Part shown: positions 2,944 through 55,178 of the stretch, piece by piece
Numbering within the stretch: position 1 is the first letter of the stretch
Layout: the number at the start of each line of letters is the position of its first letter
Virus record (IMG/VR): IMGVR_UViG_3300042558_004148
Location: 207,416-271,415 of that record
Source: a virus
DNA: 64,000 nucleotides
Reading direction: 5' to 3' (one strand)
The notes under the pieces: generated by a model
The model's database searches: none
What the model was told of the DNA's origin: nothing
The model's input: the letters and a program-made list of their open reading frames with translations, nothing else
Program-made: the position numbers and the translations under genes

Positions 2944-4083
2944 ATGGAAAGAAAATTAGCATCAGTACAGAAAGTTAGAGAAATACTCCCAATAGAGGGA
3001 GCGGATGCAATAGAAATTGCAGTTATTAATTCATGGAAGGTTATCACAAAAAAAGGTGAATATCAGCCGGGAGATCTTTGCATTTATTGCGAGATTGATT
3101 CATTTCTCCCAATTAAAGAAGAATTTGAATTTCTCAGAAAGAGCTCGTTTAAAAAGATGGATGGTCAAGAAGGATTCCGCCTTAAAACAATTAGATTGAG
3201 AGGTCAAGTTAGTCAGGGTCTTATATTGCCATTATCAGTTTTAAATGGCGAGGAGGAAATGACTGTTGGTATCAGCCAGCAACCATGGGGAGATCAATTA
3301 CAACTTGGACCTTATGACGATGCACTTGTTATAGAAGAGGGAGCTGATGTTACTGAGATTTTAGGGATAGTCAAGTACGATCCACCAATCCCAGCTCAGC
3401 TTGCAGGTAAGGTTAAAGGTTACTTCCCATCATTCATTCGTAAGACCGACGAGGAAAGGGTTCAAAATCTAACTAATGAATATTTTGGGTGGAAAATACA
3501 ATCAGCTACTCAATTCTACGTTACTGAGAAATTGGACGGAAGCTCTGCAACATTCTATTTCAAGGATGGCGTATTTGGTGTGTGTTCTAGAAATCTAGAA
3601 TTGGCTGAGCCTGAAGCATTCGTTGAAGGTGAAATGGTAATGTGTCAGGATGGTGTTGAACGACCTAAGCAGGAAAATTCCTTCTGGAAAGTTGCTCAGC
3701 ATCTACAACTTGGAGATTGGATGGCAAAACAAGATGCCAACTATGCTATCCAAGGGGAGTTGATTGGCGAAGGAATTCAGGGAAATCCATATAAAATAAA
3801 AGGTCACACCGTTAGATTCTTTAATGCATTCAATATCGATACACAGGAATATCTAGGACTGGATGAATTTGAGGGCTTAATAAAATCAATGGGATTGGAA
3901 ACTGTGCCTATCTTAGATCGTAATTTTCTTCTTCCTAATACAGTTGATGATCTATTGGAATATGCTGACGCAAAATCAGTTTTAAATCCGGATTTCGATA
4001 GAGAGGGAGTCGTTATCAGAAGTCTTGATAGAAAGATTAGCTTCAAAGCTATCTCCAATAAATTCCTATTAAAAGAGAAATAA
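2944..4083 (+). CDS. ATP-dependent RNA ligase (nucleotidyltransferase superfamily)
   Basis: Ligase motif I KxDG (TEKLDGSS), a motif IV-like segment (IQGELIGEG) and a motif V-like segment (YKIKGHTVRF). The N-terminal VQKV..IEGAD...GDLCIYCEIDS stretch is typical of phage Rnl-type ligases. Confidence 0.65.
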   Translation: MERKLASVQKVREILPIEGADAIEIAVINSWKVITKKGEYQPGDLCIYCEIDSFLPIKEEFEFLRKSSFKKMDGQEGFRLKTIRLRGQVSQGLILPLSVLNGEEEMTVGISQQPWGDQLQLGPYDDALVIEEGADVTEILGIVKYDPPIPAQLAGKVKGYFPSFIRKTDEERVQNLTNEYFGWKIQSATQFYVTEKLDGSSATFYFKDGVFGVCSRNLELAEPEAFVEGEMVMCQDGVERPKQENSFWKVAQHLQLGDWMAKQDANYAIQGELIGEGIQGNPYKIKGHTVRFFNAFNIDTQEYLGLDEFEGLIKSMGLETVPILDRNFLLPNTVDDLLEYADAKSVLNPDFDREGVVIRSLDRKISFKAISNKFLLKEK

Positions 4084-19016: not shown

Positions 19017-20054
19017 ATGGATTCAAAATCAGTAATACGATCAATCATAGAAGGAAAGAGCGGGTTACATTTTTCTAAAGGTTGTAAAAAAATGTATAAA
19101 GAACTATATGATGAGATTTGCGAAAATACAAAATTCTTAGATGAGACAAATCCAAGAATAATTGATCGAGCATATCACTACATAAATGGGATAACCGAAT
19201 CTAAAAAATGTATCGAATGTTCAAATCCTATGTCTAGGATTGATTCTACCTTTTGTTCTAAAAAATGCATGGATTCTAGTGAATTCTTAAAAAAGAAAAA
19301 GGAGGAAACAAACTTAAAGAAATTTGGTTCTACAAATGTTTCTAAAACTGATTATTTTAAGGAAAAGTATAAAAATACAATGAATAAAAAATATGGTGTA
19401 GATCATTATTCTAAAACTAAAAGCTATTTAGAAAAGTATAGGGAAACTTCTCTTGAACGATACGGAGAATCGAATCCAGCAAAAAGTGATTTGATAAAAA
19501 AGAAGACTGAAGATACCAATATTGAAAGATATGGAAGTAAAAGTCCTTTGCAAAACCCCGCAATTAAACAAAAAACCATAGAAACTTTGACCTCTAAATA
19601 CAACATCGATCATAATTCTAAAATAGAAGGAAGATATGAAAAAATGAAAGAGAATTCAAATAATAATTTTGGTACCGACCATCCGATGCAAAATGAGGAA
19701 GTTTTTGATAAATGCATGAAAAACTCTTATCGTTTCAAAGAATATAAATTACCCAGTGGTAAAATTGTTAAGGTTCAAGGATATGAGAATTTTGCTTTAG
19801 ATAAATTACTGGAGTCCTATAATGAAAATGATTTGATTATAGGGACTAAAGAGATAAAAACTATTATAGGTAGAATCGAATACTTTTTCGAAGGTGGAAA
19901 AAAAGTATATCATCCTGATATTTACATAGTATCAGAAAATAAAATTGTTGAAGTTAAGTCAGCCTACACGATTAAGCTTGATTTAGAAAAAAACGAAGCT
20001 AAAAGAAAAGCTGTTTTAGATAAAGGAATTAATTTTGAATTTATGATTTTTTAA
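19017..20054 (+). CDS. putative nuclease: Zn-ribbon + six ~23-aa tandem repeats + C-terminal PD-(D/E)xK domain
   Basis: CIECSN...CSKKC zinc ribbon. Repeats of the form K.K.E....K(Y/F)G..(H/N).... x6. C-terminal YHPDIYIV...IVEVKSAY gives D...E.K (restriction-endonuclease-like). Confidence 0.45.
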   Translation: MDSKSVIRSIIEGKSGLHFSKGCKKMYKELYDEICENTKFLDETNPRIIDRAYHYINGITESKKCIECSNPMSRIDSTFCSKKCMDSSEFLKKKKEETNLKKFGSTNVSKTDYFKEKYKNTMNKKYGVDHYSKTKSYLEKYRETSLERYGESNPAKSDLIKKKTEDTNIERYGSKSPLQNPAIKQKTIETLTSKYNIDHNSKIEGRYEKMKENSNNNFGTDHPMQNEEVFDKCMKNSYRFKEYKLPSGKIVKVQGYENFALDKLLESYNENDLIIGTKEIKTIIGRIEYFFEGGKKVYHPDIYIVSENKIVEVKSAYTIKLDLEKNEAKRKAVLDKGINFEFMIF

Positions 20055-29247: not shown

Positions 29248-30765
29248 ATGTTTAAACCCACAAGTTTATTTTACACTGATGGCTATAAAATTGGCCACAA
29301 GAAAATGTTAGCTCCCGGAACAACCCGTTTGTACGGTACTTGGATTCCACGAAGCACAAAGCATGCTCCTGAGGGAGTAGATAAAATAGTATCATTCGGT
29401 CAACAATTGGTAGTGAAATGGTTACATGATGAATTCGAAGAGAATTTTTTCAAACAACCAATTAGCGTTGCTACTAAATTTTCCGATGATATGTCAAAGT
29501 ATTTAGGACTTCCGTTCGATGGTTCACACTTCTCGGAATTACATCATCTGGGTTACTTGCCTATTAGAATTAAAGCTTTACCTGAAGGTATCGAAACAAA
29601 CCCTAACATCCCTCACATGACATTTGTGAATACTGTGGATGGATTCGGATGGTTAACATTATATTTGGAGACCATCATATCTTCATTGGCATGGAAACCA
29701 GCAACCTCTGCTACACTTGCACTAAGATACCGAAGAAATTTGGTTGAATGGGTTACGAAAACTGATCCGGCTAACGCTTGGTTAATTCCTTTCCTATGTC
29801 ACGACTTCTCTGCTAGAGGTTTATCTCCATGGGATATGTTATCTAGTGGTTTAGGACACGCTACGTCATTCAGAGGATCTGACACTATTGTTTGTATTCC
29901 TGCAGCACGATACTTCTATAACGAGCCAGAAAACGATGTCTGCATCAATTCTGTTAACGCTTCTGAACACTCAGTATCAACAACAAAGATATTTACTGTA
30001 GGAGAACAACAAATGATCTCCGATTGGTTAACTGAATTCCCTACAGGAATCCTATCAATTGTATCTGACACTTTTGATTTATGGAAACTTATCACGGAAT
30101 ATCTTCCTGCAAATAAAGAGCAAATCATGTCACGTGATGGAAAACTTGTTATCCGTCCTGACTCTGGTGATCCAGTAGATATTATCTGTGGTTCAGTGGA
30201 TGTGTTTAAGCACAATGATCCTAATTCACCACAAAGAAAAGGTGTAGTTGAATTACTTTGGGATATCTTCGGTGGAACAATCAACGAACAAGGATACAAA
30301 GTTCTTGATCCACATATTGGTGCGATCTACGGGGATTCAATCACAGTTGGTCGTCAGATTCAAATCTATGAAAGATTAGAAGAAAAAGGTTTTGCTTCAA
30401 CAAACATCGTGTTGGGAATCGGATCATTCACTTATCAAATGAATACTAGAGATACTTTGGGATTCGCTGCTAAAGGAGCTTGGTTCGAAGTAGAAGAACC
30501 TATATTTGGTGAATTTTTAGACCAAAATCTAAATACTGAAAAGGTTGCTTATGACATCTATAAAGATCCAATCACTGACGACGGAACTAAAAAATCATTG
30601 AAGGGATTAGTTCAAGTTGTAATGGAAGGCGATGAATATCATGTTAATACTCAATGTACTTGGGAACAGGAGGAGCAGGGCTTTTTACAAACAATCTATG
30701 AAGAGGGAAGATTCGTTAACGAAACAACTCTTGAGGAAGTACGTAACAAATTAAATTCTTTATAA
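29248..30765 (+). CDS. nadV: nicotinamide phosphoribosyltransferase family protein (Nampt/NadV-like; candidate nicotinamide ADP-ribose transferase)
   Basis: LFYTDGYKIGHKKMLAPGTTRLYGTWIPRS matches the Nampt N-terminus (tDsYK.tH..yP..t..yS....R). NASEHSVSTT matches AAEHST. Length 505 aa. Confidence 0.75.
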   Translation: MFKPTSLFYTDGYKIGHKKMLAPGTTRLYGTWIPRSTKHAPEGVDKIVSFGQQLVVKWLHDEFEENFFKQPISVATKFSDDMSKYLGLPFDGSHFSELHHLGYLPIRIKALPEGIETNPNIPHMTFVNTVDGFGWLTLYLETIISSLAWKPATSATLALRYRRNLVEWVTKTDPANAWLIPFLCHDFSARGLSPWDMLSSGLGHATSFRGSDTIVCIPAARYFYNEPENDVCINSVNASEHSVSTTKIFTVGEQQMISDWLTEFPTGILSIVSDTFDLWKLITEYLPANKEQIMSRDGKLVIRPDSGDPVDIICGSVDVFKHNDPNSPQRKGVVELLWDIFGGTINEQGYKVLDPHIGAIYGDSITVGRQIQIYERLEEKGFASTNIVLGIGSFTYQMNTRDTLGFAAKGAWFEVEEPIFGEFLDQNLNTEKVAYDIYKDPITDDGTKKSLKGLVQVVMEGDEYHVNTQCTWEQEEQGFLQTIYEEGRFVNETTLEEVRNKLNSL

Positions 30766-47545: not shown

Positions 47546-48364
47546 ATGCCAGAATTACCAGAAGTAGCTAGAGCAGCACTATCATTAAATACTGCAATAC
47601 AGGGTAAAACATTAAGTGATGTTATCGTACACTCGGGAAGATATTCCAGACATGGGGATCCAGTCGGGTTAGCTAATTTTAGTGAGGAACTTCCTGCACA
47701 TGTTGATAATGTTACCTTCTGTGGAAAACTTATCTTATTTGAATTTACCGGTAAGAGCGGGAAAAAATGGTGGCTTTGGAATACACTCGGCATGGGAGGT
47801 GGATGGAGACATGAGAGAACAAAACACGGACATGTTGAGTTTGTAACAAATGACGGTTCAGTTTTCTTCACAGATATACGTAATTTCGGTACATTGAAAT
47901 TTGTAGATAGCGAGAATGAAACAAATAAGAAAAAATCATCCATTGGACCTAATCATTTAGCAGATACAATTTCCGACGAGTTATTCAAGACCCGATTACT
48001 TAAAAGACCGAACCGTACTATGCCAGAGGTCTTAATGGACCAATCACTAATAGGTGGGATAGGCAATTACATTAAAGCTGAGATCCTTTATATTGCAGGG
48101 ATTTCACCGCACCGAATTGTAAATACACTATCCGACGAGGAATTTGCAAAACTTAATGCAGCAACCAAGGATGTGGTTAATAAATCATTCGCCAGTCAGG
48201 GAGCATCCATAAGTACATATAAGGGAATGGATGGCGAAGAAGGAGACTTTGTATTTTATTTCAAAGTATACGGTAGAAAAGAATGCGAGAGTGGATTCAC
48301 GGTAATAAGAGAAACTACGAAGGAAGGAAGAACAACTCATTGGGTTCCACAAATACAAAAATAA
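47546..48364 (+). CDS. Fpg/Nei-family DNA glycosylase (formamidopyrimidine/endonuclease VIII-like)
   Basis: N-terminal MPELPEVARAAL (catalytic Pro2/Glu3). Central H2TH-like region LMDQSLIGGIGNYIKAEILYIAGISP. C-terminal finger-like segment. Confidence 0.75.
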   Translation: MPELPEVARAALSLNTAIQGKTLSDVIVHSGRYSRHGDPVGLANFSEELPAHVDNVTFCGKLILFEFTGKSGKKWWLWNTLGMGGGWRHERTKHGHVEFVTNDGSVFFTDIRNFGTLKFVDSENETNKKKSSIGPNHLADTISDELFKTRLLKRPNRTMPEVLMDQSLIGGIGNYIKAEILYIAGISPHRIVNTLSDEEFAKLNAATKDVVNKSFASQGASISTYKGMDGEEGDFVFYFKVYGRKECESGFTVIRETTKEGRTTHWVPQIQK

Positions 48365-49231: not shown

Positions 49232-49311
49232 GGTCCTGGAGCTTAATCTGACGTGGAAGTCAGGTCTGCCTCTAAAACAGATAGCATCGGGTTCGAATCC
49301 TGCTAGGATCA
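49232..49311 (+). tRNA. tRNA-like gene A (80 nt, non-canonical D region), anticodon loop C-U-CUA-A-A (amber-suppressor-like CUA)
   Basis: Acceptor GGTCCTG pairs with TAGGATC (two G.U pairs). T arm CGGG-TTCGAAT-CCTG. Anticodon stem TCTG/CAGA closes the loop CTCTAAA. Discriminator A. No encoded CCA. Confidence 0.45.
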
Positions 49312-49317
49312 CAAAAG

Positions 49318-49330
49318 AGTTCTTTGAAAT
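49318..49330 (+). repeat. 13-bp direct repeat AGTTCTTTGAAAT (copy 1)
   Basis: Identical 13-mer recurs at 50148..50160, bracketing about 820 bp. Confidence 0.5.
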
Positions 49331-49597
49331 AGTAAGATAGCAGATAGACCTATATCAGCAGAATCCCACAGGGAGTCAGAAATGACGAGCAAGACGGAGC
49401 TCCTATCAGATTAACGCGTTGAGGAGGCACTCAAAGTTTTCCGAGAGGTTAACAGGTGTATAAACGATGGTTTGGGTAGAACGGATGTTAAAGGCGAGAT
49501 ATAGGTAGAAAGGATGGGGTAACCCACGAATGTGTAAATCTTAAGGTCTTACTATTTTAATTATTCTTGATTGATAATTAACACTTAAAAAATATTT

Positions 49598-50147: not shown

Positions 50148-50160
50148 AGTTCTTTGAAAT
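50148..50160 (+). repeat. 13-bp direct repeat AGTTCTTTGAAAT (copy 2)
   Basis: See copy 1. Confidence 0.5.
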
Positions 50161-50164
50161 TATA

Positions 50165-50840
50165 AAAAATATCATAAAAACGGCCTGGTTGGTAGACAGG
50201 GAGGAGTATTTAATGTAATCTGCTCAATGTGAGGAAATAACTGTCTGTAGGCATACAACAGTCCAAACGATAAACCATTATGATACAATTAGCAATGGAG
50301 GTAAACGCGAGATGAAGCGTTGGAGAATAGGGGCTCATGGATTTGAGATTCCCGCCTGGCTACCCATCAGGACTTTATAAGATAATTCCATCCACCTATA
50401 AGAAACCATTGCTTTTTAAAATATATTTAGTTAATAAATATTTTGGGGAAAGGATTAATTAACTAAACAGGTTAAACATTGAATACCTTTGTAAATTATA
50501 GTTGGGCATTTCACAGATGAGTGTTTAGATGAGTTTGAATCTCAGATTGTCCTCAAAGTTAAGAAGTTGAAAGACTCTTTTGCTATAGGTTTACATAAAG
50601 ATACTATCAGTAATGGTAGATGTGTTGTTCCCTTGAGAAAGGAATACGATTTGGCAAGCTTGGTGCAGGAGTTTTGATACTGACAAGACAACACAAATGA
50701 GTTCTCAGCAAGTGCTTCGAAAAGCTATGCAGTTTTAAAACTCCTATGGAGCCTTACAAACTAGAAGTACGTGACCCTACTCTTATACAAGCCCCGTAAC
50801 TGATAACTCGGTAGGCTATAAGAAAGAGGGTGCTAAATAA
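50165..50840. other. about 680-bp ORF-free, GC-richer block; candidate structured ncRNA(s)
   Basis: No ORF of 60 aa or more on either strand. Composition differs from the flanking AT-rich genes. It sits inside the tRNA-like cluster. Confidence 0.3.
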
Positions 50841-51058: not shown

Positions 51059-51228
51059 AGTCAGGTGGCGGAATTGGTAGACGCTATTTTGAAAGCAAAC
51101 AGTTGCAGGATTAGATCGGCACCAGCTAAGTAGTATCAAATGCCATTAAGGTACTGGGTCGTAATAACTGATATTAACCGCTCGCGGTTGGCATGTAATC
51201 CATGCAGGTTCGAGTCCTGCCCTGACTA
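51059..51228 (+). tRNA. tRNA-like gene B (about 170 nt): type-II-like 5' half and T arm/acceptor separated by an insertion of about 100 nt
   Basis: 5' AGTCAGG-TG-GCGGAATTGGTAGACGC (canonical acceptor + D arm). 3' GCAGG-TTCGAGT-CCTGC + CCTGACT + A. The acceptor strands are complementary. About 100 nt too long for a tRNA. Confidence 0.45.
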
Positions 51229-51268
51229 CGAATTCTTATCGACGTTGATAAGAAGAAAAACAAATATA

Positions 51269-51727
51269 ATGAAAAGAACAAAATTAATTTTAATTGCGAT
51301 GTTAAGTGTTTTGTCACTAAGTACATTCGCTCAATCCATTACATCGGTAGTTACCCCGGCAACTAGTGATACTTTATGCAATGGATCAACCACTTTTACC
51401 GGAGCTAATCCATCAGCAGTGTTTATTTGGATGCAACAAGGGACAACACCAATTGCAACGTTTACATCGGATTCAACAACCTATAATCTATGTCCAGGAA
51501 TATATGATGTTCAAATTTGGAACAATATGACGGATACGATGTACTATGATACAGTCATTACCATCCTATCACCATCAACACATTTAGGAATCGATGAATT
51601 GACAAATGAAGCCAAAATTGTAGGAGTATTTGATTTAGTAGGTAAAGAATCTGAATTGGTAACAAATAAACCTCTGGTTTTGGTTTATAGTAACGGAACA
51701 AGAAAACGTAGATATATTACAGAATAA
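51269..51727 (+). CDS. secreted protein
   Basis: The internal ATG at 51269 gives a signal peptide MKRTKLILIAMLSVLSLSTFAQ. The track start 51140 lies inside tRNA-like gene B. Confidence 0.5.
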   Translation: MKRTKLILIAMLSVLSLSTFAQSITSVVTPATSDTLCNGSTTFTGANPSAVFIWMQQGTTPIATFTSDSTTYNLCPGIYDVQIWNNMTDTMYYDTVITILSPSTHLGIDELTNEAKIVGVFDLVGKESELVTNKPLVLVYSNGTRKRRYITE

Positions 51728-51734
51728 TAAAAAA

Positions 51735-51864
51735 AGTCAGGTGGCGGAATTGGTAGACGCTAGACAGGTAACCAACTACAACTGTAATAAACCCGCTGAT
51801 CACGGTTAATAAGAACAGCTCTGTCGCAGAGGTTGGTATACAGGTTCGAATCCTGTCCTGGCTA
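51735..51864 (+). tRNA. tRNA-like gene C (about 130 nt): first 28 nt identical to gene B; insertion of about 57 nt
   Basis: 5' AGTCAGGTGGCGGAATTGGTAGACGCTA is identical to B. 3' ACAGG-TTCGAAT-CCTGT + CCTGGCT + A. The acceptor pairs with one G.U pair. Confidence 0.45.
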
Positions 51865-52009
51865 CTTAGCAAGGCATAAACGATAAGGAAAATCTGTCAC
51901 AAGTTTATGTTAAGTTGCAGACAGACCGAAATGCTTACGGTTAACAGGGCTTACCCATAAAGTCCAGAGAGCATAATCTAACGGGTGACTGATGGAAAGA
52001 CATCAAAAT

Positions 52010-52096
52010 AGTCAGGTGGTGTAATAGGCAACACCCTTCATTATCAGGCCCCGTAAGGCTGGAAGGACGACGCAGGTTCGAATCCTGTCCTGACCA
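52010..52096 (+). tRNA. tRNA-like gene D (87 nt) with an extended (about 32-nt) anticodon-arm-like hairpin
   Basis: Acceptor AGTCAGG/CCTGACC (A1.C72). D arm GTGT-AATAGGCA-ACAC. Long hairpin CCTTC...CAG(G)CC-CCGTAA-GGCTG...GAAGG. T arm GCAGG-TTCGAAT-CCTGT. Confidence 0.45.
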
Positions 52097-52217
52097 CTAA
52101 AACAACTAGCGGAGTAGGCACAAATCTTCGTTAACAGTGGTATTTAAGTAGGTTTGGGGATGCTGTGTAGTCCATTGAAAACTAAACCGAAGATTGCTTA
52201 TGTAGTTGTTTTTATAC

Positions 52218-52283
52218 AGTCAGATGAAAGTAGGCTAAGACGAATTAAGTTTCGCGTTGCAGGTTCGATTCCTGCTCTGACTA
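52218..52283 (+). tRNA. tRNA-like gene E (66 nt, degenerate; possibly a pseudo-tRNA)
   Basis: Acceptor AGTCAGA/TCTGACT and T arm GCAGG-TTCGATT-CCTGC. The internal region is too short for both a D arm and an anticodon arm. Confidence 0.35.
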
Positions 52284-52309
52284 CTAATATTAAATTAAAA
52301 AAATTCCAT

Positions 52310-52636
52310 GTGAATGTAGACTTATTTAGACATTGGCTTCCGGACTTAAGACAAACTCAAAACAAGAGTGCTTATGTAGCAAAGCAATGCCCGATTTGTC
52401 CAAGAACCCCGAATAGCAAATCGTTTCGTATAAACACGAAACTAAAAGTTTTTAAGTGCTATCAATGCGGAAGAGGTGGAAAGAACTTTAATAAGATGGT
52501 CCATTATTTAAAGAAACGTGATACTAGTGTACATAGTAATAAATATCTGAAGAAAATAGGTCGTCGTCCAGTGTGTGTTCCTATTGAGGTTCATTACGGT
52601 TGTGAAACTTTCTATGAAAGTCAGCTCCCATTTTGA
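52310..52636 (+). CDS. CHC2 (primase-type) zinc-finger protein, start uncertain (GTG)
   Basis: CPICPRTPNSKSF....KVFKCYQCGRGGKNFNKMVHYL matches the DnaG CHC2 finger. The frame is open back through tRNA-like gene E with no ATG, so GTG 52310 is the first plausible start. Confidence 0.4.
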   Translation: MNVDLFRHWLPDLRQTQNKSAYVAKQCPICPRTPNSKSFRINTKLKVFKCYQCGRGGKNFNKMVHYLKKRDTSVHSNKYLKKIGRRPVCVPIEVHYGCETFYESQLPF

Positions 52637-52641
52637 CATAT

Positions 52642-52676
52642 AACCCGTGAGGACGTAAAGACGAATAAGCGGGTTT
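52642..52676 (+). terminator. possible terminator (long-loop hairpin)
   Basis: AACCCG...CGGGTT stem followed by TATTAAAAATAAATTT; weak. Confidence 0.3.
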
Positions 52677-52742
52677 ATTAAAAATAAATTTAATAAAAAA
52701 AGAAACTTTTTTAAAAACAAATATATAATAGGTATGAATTAG

Positions 52743-53084
52743 ATTAAATTACAAACTCCGAAACTTGTCATCATAACCAGACAAGACATCAACCCAGGTT
52801 ATCAAGTTGTTCAATCAACACATTCAATAGCTGACTTTGCTTATGAACATCCTGAAAAGTTCAAAGAATGGAAAGAGACATCAAATTCTATAATTTGTCT
52901 CTCCGCAAGATCAGAAGAGCACCTAATTAAACTTTACGAGAAATACAGAACCGTCACAGAGGCATCATTGTTTTTTGAGCCTGATGTTGACGCATATACT
53001 TCTGCGTGTTTTTTTGGAACTCCACAAGTCAGAAAAGCATTCTCGCATCTACCGCTATCATTAAAAACACAACCAACATCATGA
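52743..53084 (+). CDS. PTH2-like peptidyl-tRNA hydrolase; no canonical start codon in the open frame
   Basis: KLVIITRQDINPGYQVVQSTHSIADFAY and WKETSNSIICLSARSEEHLIKLYEKY align with PTH2 ([29 protein letters not shown] / [27 protein letters not shown]). The frame opens at ATT directly after ATG-AAT-TAG. Stop overlaps the next gene (ATGA). Start coordinate approximate. Confidence 0.55.
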   Translation: MKLQTPKLVIITRQDINPGYQVVQSTHSIADFAYEHPEKFKEWKETSNSIICLSARSEEHLIKLYEKYRTVTEASLFFEPDVDAYTSACFFGTPQVRKAFSHLPLSLKTQPTS

Positions 53085-54447: not shown

Positions 54448-54463
54448 TCTCACCTTTTTTATA
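54430..54463. terminator. bidirectional rho-independent terminator between convergent genes
   Basis: AAAAAAGGTGAGATttaATCTCACCTTTTTTAT; A-run and T-run flank the hairpin. Confidence 0.65.
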
Positions 54464-55178
54464 TTGAATTGTAGCCATTCTTTATGGAATCGTGGTGGTT
54501 TATCCAGAATCTTTCTCTCTCGAAAATGAATTTATCAGCTTCTGAATATTCCTTTGTATCATCCGGGATCTTAACAACCTCTATCACTTCAAATGTCCAA
54601 TCACTAATCTCGGTTGTCTTTATCTCATTGTGGAATTTAGTGCTACCGAGTTGGAAAAAGTGTTGATACCATCGGAAAGTAAATGCTTGTGTTGTCTTTC
54701 CTATATAGGATAGACCAGTTTTCTTATTGGTTATCTTGTATATGACAGGAATGTGTTTACCGTTCATTACGTTATCCTCATTCCACTTTACGGTCTCAAT
54801 AAGCTTTGCTTCGTGTTTACATTCATCGGAGCAATATTCAGATCCCTTATTTAAACAATTAGCATCATTGTACTTATCAATTATTCTGAATTCAGATCCA
54901 CAAGTGGAACACTCCCTTGATGAAAATAACCTAGAATGCCCAGAGTTTTCCGTTATTTCAGTTATTGCTAGAAGATATTCATTAGCATCTATATCCTTAT
55001 CAAGAACTCTTAGTGGAAATTTTCTACCGTATTCCTCGTCTATAATTAGTTTAGCTTCCTTTCTATCAGTAGCTGAAACCTTACCACTGAATATGGGAGG
55101 GAAAGCCCATTTCCCATATGAATATGGGTCACTCGGATTATTCTTACCCTTTATCTGATAATAGAATTCCTTCATCAA
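54459..55178 (-). CDS. GIY-YIG nuclease-domain protein with N-terminal Cys cluster (homing-endonuclease-like)
   Basis: IPVIYKITNKKTGLSYIGKTTQAFTFRWYQH...E...NGYN gives GIY ... YIG ... R ... H ... E ... N. N-terminal CSTCGSE...CSDEC. Confidence 0.6.
   Translation of the reverse strand: MMKEFYYQIKGKNNPSDPYSYGKWAFPPIFSGKVSATDRKEAKLIIDEEYGRKFPLRVLDKDIDANEYLLAITEITENSGHSRLFSSRECSTCGSEFRIIDKYNDANCLNKGSEYCSDECKHEAKLIETVKWNEDNVMNGKHIPVIYKITNKKTGLSYIGKTTQAFTFRWYQHFFQLGSTKFHNEIKTTEISDWTFEVIEVVKIPDDTKEYSEADKFIFERERFWINHHDSIKNGYNSI

Follow-up and report, generated by a model that had tools for sequence, protein, structure and literature searches.

In the 64,000-nucleotide stretch of viral DNA analysed here (the window), which covers positions 207,416 to 271,415 of the IMG/VR record IMGVR_UViG_3300042558_004148, two tRNA-like genes, called B and C below, stand on either side of a gene for a signal-peptide-like protein. 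B and C are probably members of a multi-copy phage family of non-decoding, tRNA-like carrier RNAs, in which a constant frame holds a swappable, structured cargo, and whose products would be matured as tRNAs are and might be charged with leucine. At least four genes of the cluster (B, C, D and E, all within 51059-52284) are built on one tRNA-Leu-derived frame, and none of them has an anticodon arm. That D (52010-52096) and E (52218-52283) have the same acceptor stem and T-arm had been overlooked in an earlier sequence-only reading of this DNA, which likened B, C and the gene between them to a duplicated cassette or a scar of recombination or integration.

The 28-mer AGTCAGGTGGCGGAATTGGTAGACGCTA, the 5' half of this frame, lies at 51059-51086 and at 51735-51762 without a single difference, as had been claimed; the window holds no third copy with up to three mismatches allowed, and 100 shuffles of the sequence give 0 matches. 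The 3' ends, earlier described as near-identical, have the same base at 22 of 26 positions (GCAGGTTCGAGTCCTGCCCTGACTAC at 51204-51229 in B and ACAGGTTCGAATCCTGTCCTGGCTAC at 51840-51865 in C), and two of the four differing bases constitute a compensatory G-C to A-U change in the T-stem. All four genes start with AGTCAG(G/A)TG and end with a T-arm (GCAGG/ACAGG, TTCGANT, CCTGC/CCTGT), the complementary acceptor strand and AC. In anatomical terms, the frame comprises a 7-bp acceptor stem, a tRNA-Leu D-arm (GGCGGAAUUGGUAGACGC), a T-arm, a U placed right before the T-stem, A73 and C74, with the anticodon arm and the variable arm replaced by an insert that differs from gene to gene. B and C both possess the 7-bp acceptor stem, the D-arm and a T-arm with a GTTCRANTC loop, and the D-arm that they have in common (GGCGGAATTGGTAGACGC) is identical in annotated tRNA-Leu genes.

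The description of B and C as tRNA-like is sound. C passes the Rfam tRNA cut-off (33.1 bits against the RF00005 gathering cut-off of 29 bits), and in that alignment 72 nt of inserted sequence take the place of the anticodon arm; B has no full-length Rfam match. ARAGORN reports 0 tRNA genes and no tmRNA in the whole window. By inspection, an anticodon stem of 5 bp with a 7-nt loop cannot be drawn in either gene, and in B only 2 nt separate the end of the conserved helix H2 from the T-stem, so that there is no room for the 3' strand of an anticodon stem or for a variable arm. D retains the acceptor stem and T-arm of the frame, with a D-arm of its own (GTGT/ACAC) and an A-C mismatch at 1:72; where a 7-nt anticodon loop would be expected, a CCUUC/GAAGG stem closes a loop of 22 nt. 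E, at 65 nt, is a minimal member, with the acceptor AGUCAGA/UCUGACU, a T-arm, no D-stem and one small hairpin with the loop UUAAGU.

What B carries in its frame is a real structured RNA with a pseudoknot. When cultured phages are searched with B, it is the insert and not the tRNA parts that gives matches: an intergenic stretch of Proteus phage Brookers is 81% identical over 88 nt, a human-gut phage contig matches as well, and Flavobacterium phage FL-1 matches with the frame included, its B-type gene lying at about 19,630-19,800 of KY421186. A signature pattern built from four sequences is present in 58 viral contigs. Seventeen non-redundant sequences were aligned for the test of covariation, with a model of five helices that includes one pseudoknot (H1 to H5, Table 1). 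In this model 89% of cells are paired, as against 28-46% when the partners are slid by 1-3 columns; both sides have changed in 14 of the 23 pairs, and 0 of 500 shuffles reach any of these measures. The pseudoknot helix H1 alone occurs as CAGUU/AACUG, CGGUU/AACCG, CAUUAU/AUAAUG, CUGUU/AACAG, UUCUUUA/UAAAGAA and UAACAAUUA/UAAUUGUUA. No family of Rfam 15 matches the domain at E<=10.

The same domain is found in more than one setting. In Bacteroidota-type contigs it lies in tRNA-Leu-like frames with the acceptors AGTCAGG, AGCAAGG, TGCCGGG, GGACGAG and GGAGTG, and it is embedded in other tRNA-like frames, too. In some 44 proteobacterial (pro)phage contigs it stands alone, outside the tRNA-Leu-like frame, and is closed by a terminal stem that covaries and is 8-10 bp long (examples are GATTGGTG/CACCAATC, GATGCGGATG/CATCTGCATC and GTGTGATCTG/CAGATCACAC). 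Directly after this stem the enteric phages have ACCA, and the others ACCC or ACCG. Two covarying 5-bp hairpins occupy the places of the D- and T-arms in this form; their invariant loops, GGCUGA and AGAUCAGCA, are complementary, and a double change from GCUGAU/AUCAGC to ACUGAU/AUCAGU preserves the complementarity. The stand-alone form would then be a second, independent tRNA-like L-shape with a CCA-type end around the B domain. That one domain should be housed in two separate tRNA-shaped frames suggests that the tRNA shape is part of its function and not a mere convenience.

A cI/LexA-like repressor, encoded on the same strand, lies 1-2 kb upstream of the stand-alone copies, which is the sole pattern among the 44 stand-alone loci, where no neighbouring gene is widely shared. 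The stand-alone domain is absent from the E. coli genomes searched, and the copy in Proteus phage Brookers is unannotated. There (OL539469, 25506-25711; L001:1450-1660) the B-type RNA overlaps two coding sequences labelled "hypothetical protein" in the gp42/gp41 region, downstream of a LexA-like repressor gene and a gene with an NYN domain; the overlapping calls are probably spurious.

The frame, for its part, extends well beyond this one record. Searched for by its 5' half alone, it occurs almost unchanged in at least 120 uncultivated viral contigs, several of which hold two to four framed copies, each with a different insert. The sample examined comprises 124 complete elements retrieved by the exact 5' half, from IMG/VR contigs that are possibly redundant in part. 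The 24-nt 3' half, which played no part in retrieval, shows 0-1 mismatch to ACAGGTTCGAATCCTGTCCTGACT in 97 of the 124; A73 is present in 111 and the full AC (A73-C74) in 108, while the U before the T-stem (U48) is kept with 106 of the 113 unique inserts. Those inserts, 22 to 229 nt long, fall into 100 similarity clusters. In other phages the elements sit among canonical tRNAs (45-63 bits) and have the same 3' trailers (NCAA) as these.

Among 185,579 species genomes, searched with the 5' frame and not separately with the 3' half, the frame is found only in 13 small contigs from metagenome bins. Their taxonomy is inconsistent, some being labelled Flavobacterium, Chitinophagaceae or Sediminibacterium. 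Its absence from the rest of this set indicates that the frame belongs to phages and was not copied from a known host tRNA-Leu. The cultured-phage records searched do not contain the AGTCAGG frame, and neither the frame-plus-insert genes nor the B and C domains are represented by a family in Rfam. Scanned against Rfam at permissive thresholds, B, the Proteus phage copy, the whole cluster and 20 related loci give tRNA matches only, and no insert among them matches a known riboswitch, ribozyme or small RNA. We found no account of this family in the literature, in a search whose coverage was incomplete, such that a prior description may exist.

There are two variations on the frame. At L044, L094, L102, L104, L133, L139, L143, L171 and L174, framed elements have a second insertion, a covarying hairpin (for example GGAUUGGGGUGUCCCCGGUCGU) in the D-loop between GGCGGAA and GGTAGACGC. 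Another type of frame, GGGGCGGUGGUG...CUGCUCCA, is found at L106:1916-2038 and, as a 115-nt element on the minus strand, at position 2227 of L044; its insert holds a second T-arm-like hairpin (GAGGTTCGATTCCTC), and the tmRNA model matches the L106 copy only weakly, at 18.9 bits (cut-off 47).

C has relatives of its own. The C-type element is present in 10 viral contigs, at 99-100% identity over exactly 133-138 nt, which are the limits of the gene itself, within 2.5-kb flanks that have no similarity. The C of the window differs from this version at ten positions, four of which make up two compensatory changes, ACCAAC/GUUGGU to GUCAAC/GUUGAC. On the strength of these two sequences, C can be drawn in the topology of B, with the 5' strand pairing inside the insert and a second strand pairing beside the T-stem to give a putative pseudoknot.

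How such genes might work can be put as a series of steps. They would be transcribed together with the phage tRNA cluster, as their position and strand suggest. Host tRNA enzymes would then mature the transcripts, with RNase P acting at the 5' end, followed by 3' trimming and CCA addition; the intact core of acceptor, T-arm and D-arm and an NCAA trailer shared with genuine tRNAs of these phages suggest as much. The product would be an L-shaped tRNA core with the insert projecting from it, and this core might be charged with leucine. The E. coli leucyl-tRNA synthetase (LeuRS) needs A73, A15-U48, G18G19, A20a and contacts of the D-loop with the T-loop, and tRNA-Leu deprived of its anticodon arm and variable arm is still aminoacylated by this enzyme (review, PMC9976931). 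A73, A15-U48, G18G19, A20a, U8-A14 and the D/T-loop contacts are all present in B and C. Since the frame keeps every known LeuRS determinant, and the enzyme requires neither the anticodon nor the variable arm, charging with leucine appears possible. The insert would be the working part of the molecule; the B domain, conserved between Bacteroidota-type phages and prophages as distant as the enterobacterial ones, presumably has a conserved binding partner in the cell or the phage. The frame would owe its constancy to selection, to whole elements often being recombined or passed on horizontally, or to a combination of the two, and the constant frame could itself serve as a pair of homology arms for the exchange of inserts.

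A number of observations weigh against this reading. The minimum-free-energy (MFE) folds of B, C, D and E are no better than those of shuffled sequences (z -0.5 to -1.25), so that thermodynamics alone is uninformative here. Retrieval by an exact 5' pattern biases the sample toward constancy, and constancy at the level of sequence with little covariation would also fit a recent horizontal spread or a role at the DNA level. Most of the inserts other than those of B and C are singletons and could be unconstrained; the covariation test covers the B insert, and the case for C rests on its two compensatory pairs. A perfect 6-bp helix adjoining the T-stem is enriched and not universal (57% as against 32% in shuffles). 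No protein gene co-occurs widely near the 139 framed loci, the best cluster being found at 13 of the 139, and no antisense target of the inserts in the window rises above chance, a 13-nt antisense match of the C insert at 52668 being equal to the maximum seen in shuffles. Finally, relatives found through the neighbouring HD-domain protein (67-73% amino acid identity) keep this gene paired with a PTH2-like gene and have no tRNA-like cluster; since these are the closest relatives by neighbouring proteins, the cluster must be dispensable.

It is unlikely, all the same, that these genes are tRNA pseudogenes in decay, or that they merely punctuate a polycistronic transcript as tRNA-shaped signals for processing, with a middle that is free to drift. 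RNase P and RNase Z need only the acceptor/T-arm half of a tRNA, and the elements do lie between open reading frames (ORFs) and conserved non-coding stretches (such as 51865-52009) that would possibly be released by processing; the many singleton inserts and the unremarkable MFE z-scores point the same way. Drift, however, leaves unexplained both the covariation of the B insert across phyla and the 99-100% identity of C-type genes in unrelated flanks, and the D-arm, U48 and A73 are retained though processing needs none of them.

We attach a still lower probability to the proposal that the constant halves are recombination arms or sites that act in the DNA, moving inserts and neighbouring genes between phages, the RNA being incidental. 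The elements can be likened to integron attC sites or to the promoter-stem-loop cassettes of T4-type phages: the frame is constant in sequence and does not covary, the islands of identity coincide exactly with the element in otherwise unrelated contigs, and there are several copies per genome with accessory ORFs between them. On the other hand, no recombinase or other protein co-occurs with them, the positions of tRNA tertiary interactions are kept, which would be meaningless in DNA, and the covariation in the inserts is at the level of RNA. Roles in punctuation and in recombination could nonetheless coexist with the carrier model; none of the alternatives accounts together for the covariation, the stand-alone tRNA-shaped form and the retained identity positions.

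The explanation first offered for B and C, namely a segmental duplication or a recombination/integration scar around a secreted-protein cassette, with inserts that diverged later, is now very improbable and largely refuted. It had been prompted by a layout that is correct as described: direct repeats of 28 nt and about 22 nt, with different inserts between these two halves, flank the signal-peptide-like gene at 51269-51727. Further in its favor, the gene so flanked has no relatives, the cluster is missing in the closest relatives, which makes the region a variable one, and a GIY-YIG homing-endonuclease-like gene lies downstream. The repeat is not specific to this site, however. D and E have the same ends, and the frame recurs in the at least 120 contigs mentioned above, from which it follows that the 28-nt identity is not the trace of a local duplication or integration. 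Nor are the two inserts diverged copies of one another, as each belongs to its own conserved family. The 5' frame with its acceptor strand is absent from bacterial genomes apart from the 13 bin contigs, and no host tRNA-Leu carrying it was found that could have been an attachment site. That reading had named as decisive against itself the finding of B and C as unrelated loci in related genomes, with no variation in synteny, and this is essentially what is seen. C-type genes occur elsewhere with neither a B-type gene nor the ORF, as at L176, where one has an unrelated ORF on one side, a tRNA-Ser on the other and no B-type gene in the vicinity; at L011 and L027, the gap from a B-type gene to the framed element after it is 66 and 139 nt, respectively, and holds no ORF. 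The ORF itself, of 152 amino acids with the N-terminus MKRTKLILIAMLSVLSLSTFAQ, matches no Pfam or NCBIfam family and has no relative among the IMG/VR viral contigs, and is best regarded as an accessory gene that is not conserved. With an ORF that lacks relatives, B- and C-type genes that are unpaired elsewhere, and related phages that lack the cluster, B, the ORF and C do not form a conserved cassette.

Two further observations concern this ORF. Its end had looked like a T9SS sorting domain, but neither NCBIfam nor Pfam bears this out. A longer frame of 195 amino acids (51140-51727, plus strand) begins at a conserved AUG within the B insert and runs in frame into the secreted-protein ORF; this extension is likely to be coincidental, with the ATG at 51269 as the start.

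Least probable of all is that B and C are tRNA-Leu genes with introns, self- or protein-spliced, that yield a decoding tRNA. In favor of this, they have a tRNA-Leu D-arm, group I introns are classically found in bacterial tRNA-Leu(UAA) genes and the window encodes an RNA ligase. But no anticodon stem-loop can be formed from the sequence flanking the inserts, inserts of 22-24 nt (the size of an anticodon arm plus variable loop) likewise do not pair as an anticodon arm, no group I intron, other intron or ribozyme in Rfam matches at E<=10, the B domain also exists apart from any tRNA, closed by a terminal stem of its own, a catalytic intron family does not look like 100 unrelated insert clusters, and the inserts of B and C, at 79-119 nt, are smaller than the smallest natural group I introns known, of about 200 nt.

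Carrier RNAs of the kind proposed would have several partial counterparts. The "species 1 and 2" RNAs of phage T4 (rnaC and rnaD) are 120-140 nt long, lie among tRNA genes, have tRNA-like ends and are co-processed with the tRNAs. Likened here by description alone, they are two fixed RNAs, whereas the present genes combine a constant frame with many inserts. In the engineered "tRNA scaffold" of Ponchon and Dardel, a structured RNA grafted in place of the anticodon arm reportedly undergoes tRNA-like processing and stabilization. This is a laboratory design with the same layout as the elements described here; to our knowledge, no natural counterpart of it as a platform has been described.

Among natural RNAs, tmRNA (SsrA; PMC3985003) has, like the proposed carriers, a tRNA-like acceptor/T-arm module with a large pseudoknotted body on the anticodon side, and undergoes processing by RNase P and charging by a synthetase that ignores the anticodon. 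Features of tmRNA are the G3-U70 alanine identity, the lack of a D-stem, the tag reading frame, four pseudoknots and a length of 260-430 nt. B and C, by contrast, have U-A and U-G, respectively, at 3:70, a complete tRNA-Leu D-arm, no conserved ORF and inserts that differ, and ARAGORN does not call them tmRNA. The tRNA-like structures of plant RNA viruses are viral mimics of the tRNA L-shape, often pseudoknotted, that are completed with CCA and aminoacylated by the host and do not decode. These are cis-acting 3' ends of eukaryotic-virus RNA genomes, with other folds, and accept Val, His or Tyr, whereas the present elements, which have genuine tRNA arms and determinants of the leucine type, are free-standing genes of DNA phages. 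Class II and "minimalist" tRNA-Leu have the identical D-arm along with A73, A15-U48, G18G19, A20a and U8/A14 (PMC9976931); the elements of this family differ from them in the structured insert that replaces the anticodon stem-loop and in an acceptor-stem sequence not found in sequenced bacteria save for the 13 bin contigs. The bacterial Y RNA YrlA (bioRxiv 10.1101/312249) likewise joins a tRNA-mimicking module to a second functional module and also occurs in phages. Its termini form the Ro-binding stem, with the tRNA-like part in the interior, whereas in the present elements it is the acceptor stem that the termini form; no rsr gene was noticed, though no search was aimed at one.

Table 1. Features of the cluster and of its surroundings (positions in the window)
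Feature	Position	Strand	Remarks
Element A, tRNA-like, anticodon loop CUCUAAA	49232-49311	+	Rfam 25.4 bits (match 49239-49311); missed by ARAGORN
A2, possible degenerate member	50182-50363	+	Read by eye, detected by no tool; low confidence
Element B, tRNA-Leu-like frame with 119-nt insert	51059-51229	+	Relatives in Flavobacterium phage FL-1 and IMG/VR contigs
B, 5' frame (acceptor 5' strand and D-arm)	51059-51084	+	
B, insert: conserved pseudoknotted domain (about 115 nt)	51085-51203	+	Covariation, 17 sequences
B insert, H1 (pseudoknot)	51100-51104 with 51166-51170	+	
B insert, H2	51108-51113 with 51196-51201	+	
B insert, H3	51122-51125 with 51154-51157	+	
B insert, conserved bulge CUAAGUAGU	from 51126	+	
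B insert, H4	51141-51144 with 51150-51153	+	
B insert, H5	51176-51180 with 51185-51189	+	
B, T-arm	51204-51220	+	
B, acceptor 3' strand	51221-51227	+	
B, A73	51228	+	
B, C74	51229	+	
ORF, 152 amino acids, signal-peptide-like N-terminus	51269-51727	+	Accessory gene, outside the RNA family
Element C, frame of B with 79-nt insert	51735-51865	+	Rfam tRNA 33.1 bits
C, 5' frame	51735-51760	+	
C, insert	51761-51839	+	
C, T-arm and acceptor 3' strand	51840-51863	+	
C, A73	51864	+	
C, C74	51865	+	
Element D	52010-52097	+	Rfam tRNA 37.8 bits with 25-nt insertion (match 52010-52096)
Element E	52218-52284	+	Rfam tRNA 27.5 bits, under cut-off (match 52218-52283)
GIY-YIG homing-endonuclease-like protein	54459-55178	-	About 2.2-2.6 kb downstream of the cluster
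RNA ligase	2944-4083	+	
NAPRTase-family protein	29248-30765	+	
Fpg/Nei-type DNA glycosylase	47546-48364	+	

Other features of the cluster deserve mention in their own right (Table 1). The anticodon of element A is CUA, that of an amber suppressor, and its acceptor stem is a perfect 7-bp helix only if 9 nt, and not 2, separate it from the D-stem. A recoding of TAG throughout the genome, an idea prompted by this gene, finds no support in the window, where standard-code ORFs are intact. In A2 the T-arm is weak; the 5' remnant reads GGCCTGG-TTGGTAGAC and the 3' end CCTGGCTAC. Some 240 non-coding nucleotides at 49320-49562 (plus strand), within unrelated flanks, are 92% identical to L169:4067-4291. 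The ends of this stretch, which is probably another structured RNA, pair as GUAAGA/UCUUAC, 0 of 200 shuffles fold as well as it does (MFE z-score -3.8), and Rfam has no match for it. C and D are separated by a spacer of 145 nt (51865-52009, plus strand) with 89% identity to L155:1884-2030, which likewise has a tRNA-like element on either side; conserved more than the inserts of its neighbours and without an Rfam match, the spacer could be an RNA that is freed when the flanking tRNA-like genes are processed. The 12-mer GTTCTTTGAAAT occurs exactly at 49319-49330 and 50149-50160 (plus strand), each time just 5' of a non-coding element of the cluster, and words like it (CCGTTCTTTGAAATAA) come after framed elements in L044 and L106. 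Its count in the window is not above chance; it may be a promoter or a processing signal.

Directly after E, an ORF of 108 amino acids (52310-52636, plus strand) scores 23.2 bits for a DnaG-type CHC2 zinc ribbon, just under the Pfam cut-off, and has no primase catalytic domain. Farther on, the PTH2-like ORF (peptidyl- or aminoacyl-tRNA hydrolase; 52734-53084, plus strand), at 22.7 bits in Pfam and 23.8 bits in NCBIfam, both below cut-off, adjoins the HD-domain gene, an arrangement conserved in L182-L185. The copy in the window has an ATG at 52734 and then, two codons on, an in-frame TAG at 52740. Either this ORF has a non-canonical start codon or the TAG is read through, which is of note given the CUA anticodon of element A.

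Mimicry of tRNA is already known from tmRNA, the tRNA-like structures of plant viruses and Y RNAs; there is a substantial chance that the organization seen here, a constant handle with swappable cargo, is new in kind. A more far-reaching version, which we hold only tentatively, is that phages of Bacteroidota and related hosts maintain a natural "tRNA scaffold": a constant, tRNA-Leu-like and LeuRS-competent handle for many unrelated structured inserts (aptamer-, decoy- or ribozyme-like) that would be exchanged between phages, matured by the host, CCA-ended and leucylated, and that would never decode, with a B domain that might target a partner conserved from Flavobacteria to Enterobacteria. Such a platform would be an RNA counterpart of the hypervariable islands of anti-defence or accessory proteins.

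If the carrier reading is true, a constant tRNA frame with about 100 structured inserts would represent a new viral route for making and delivering functional RNAs. It would account for the many "odd tRNAs" of viral metagenomes that tRNA finders score wrongly or fail to detect, and would add at least one widespread structured RNA domain, the B type, that is absent from Rfam 15. It raises testable questions as well, concerning the charging of non-decoding RNAs with leucine during infection and the binding partners of the inserts, and it would provide a natural precedent for the tRNA-scaffold trick of RNA biotechnology.

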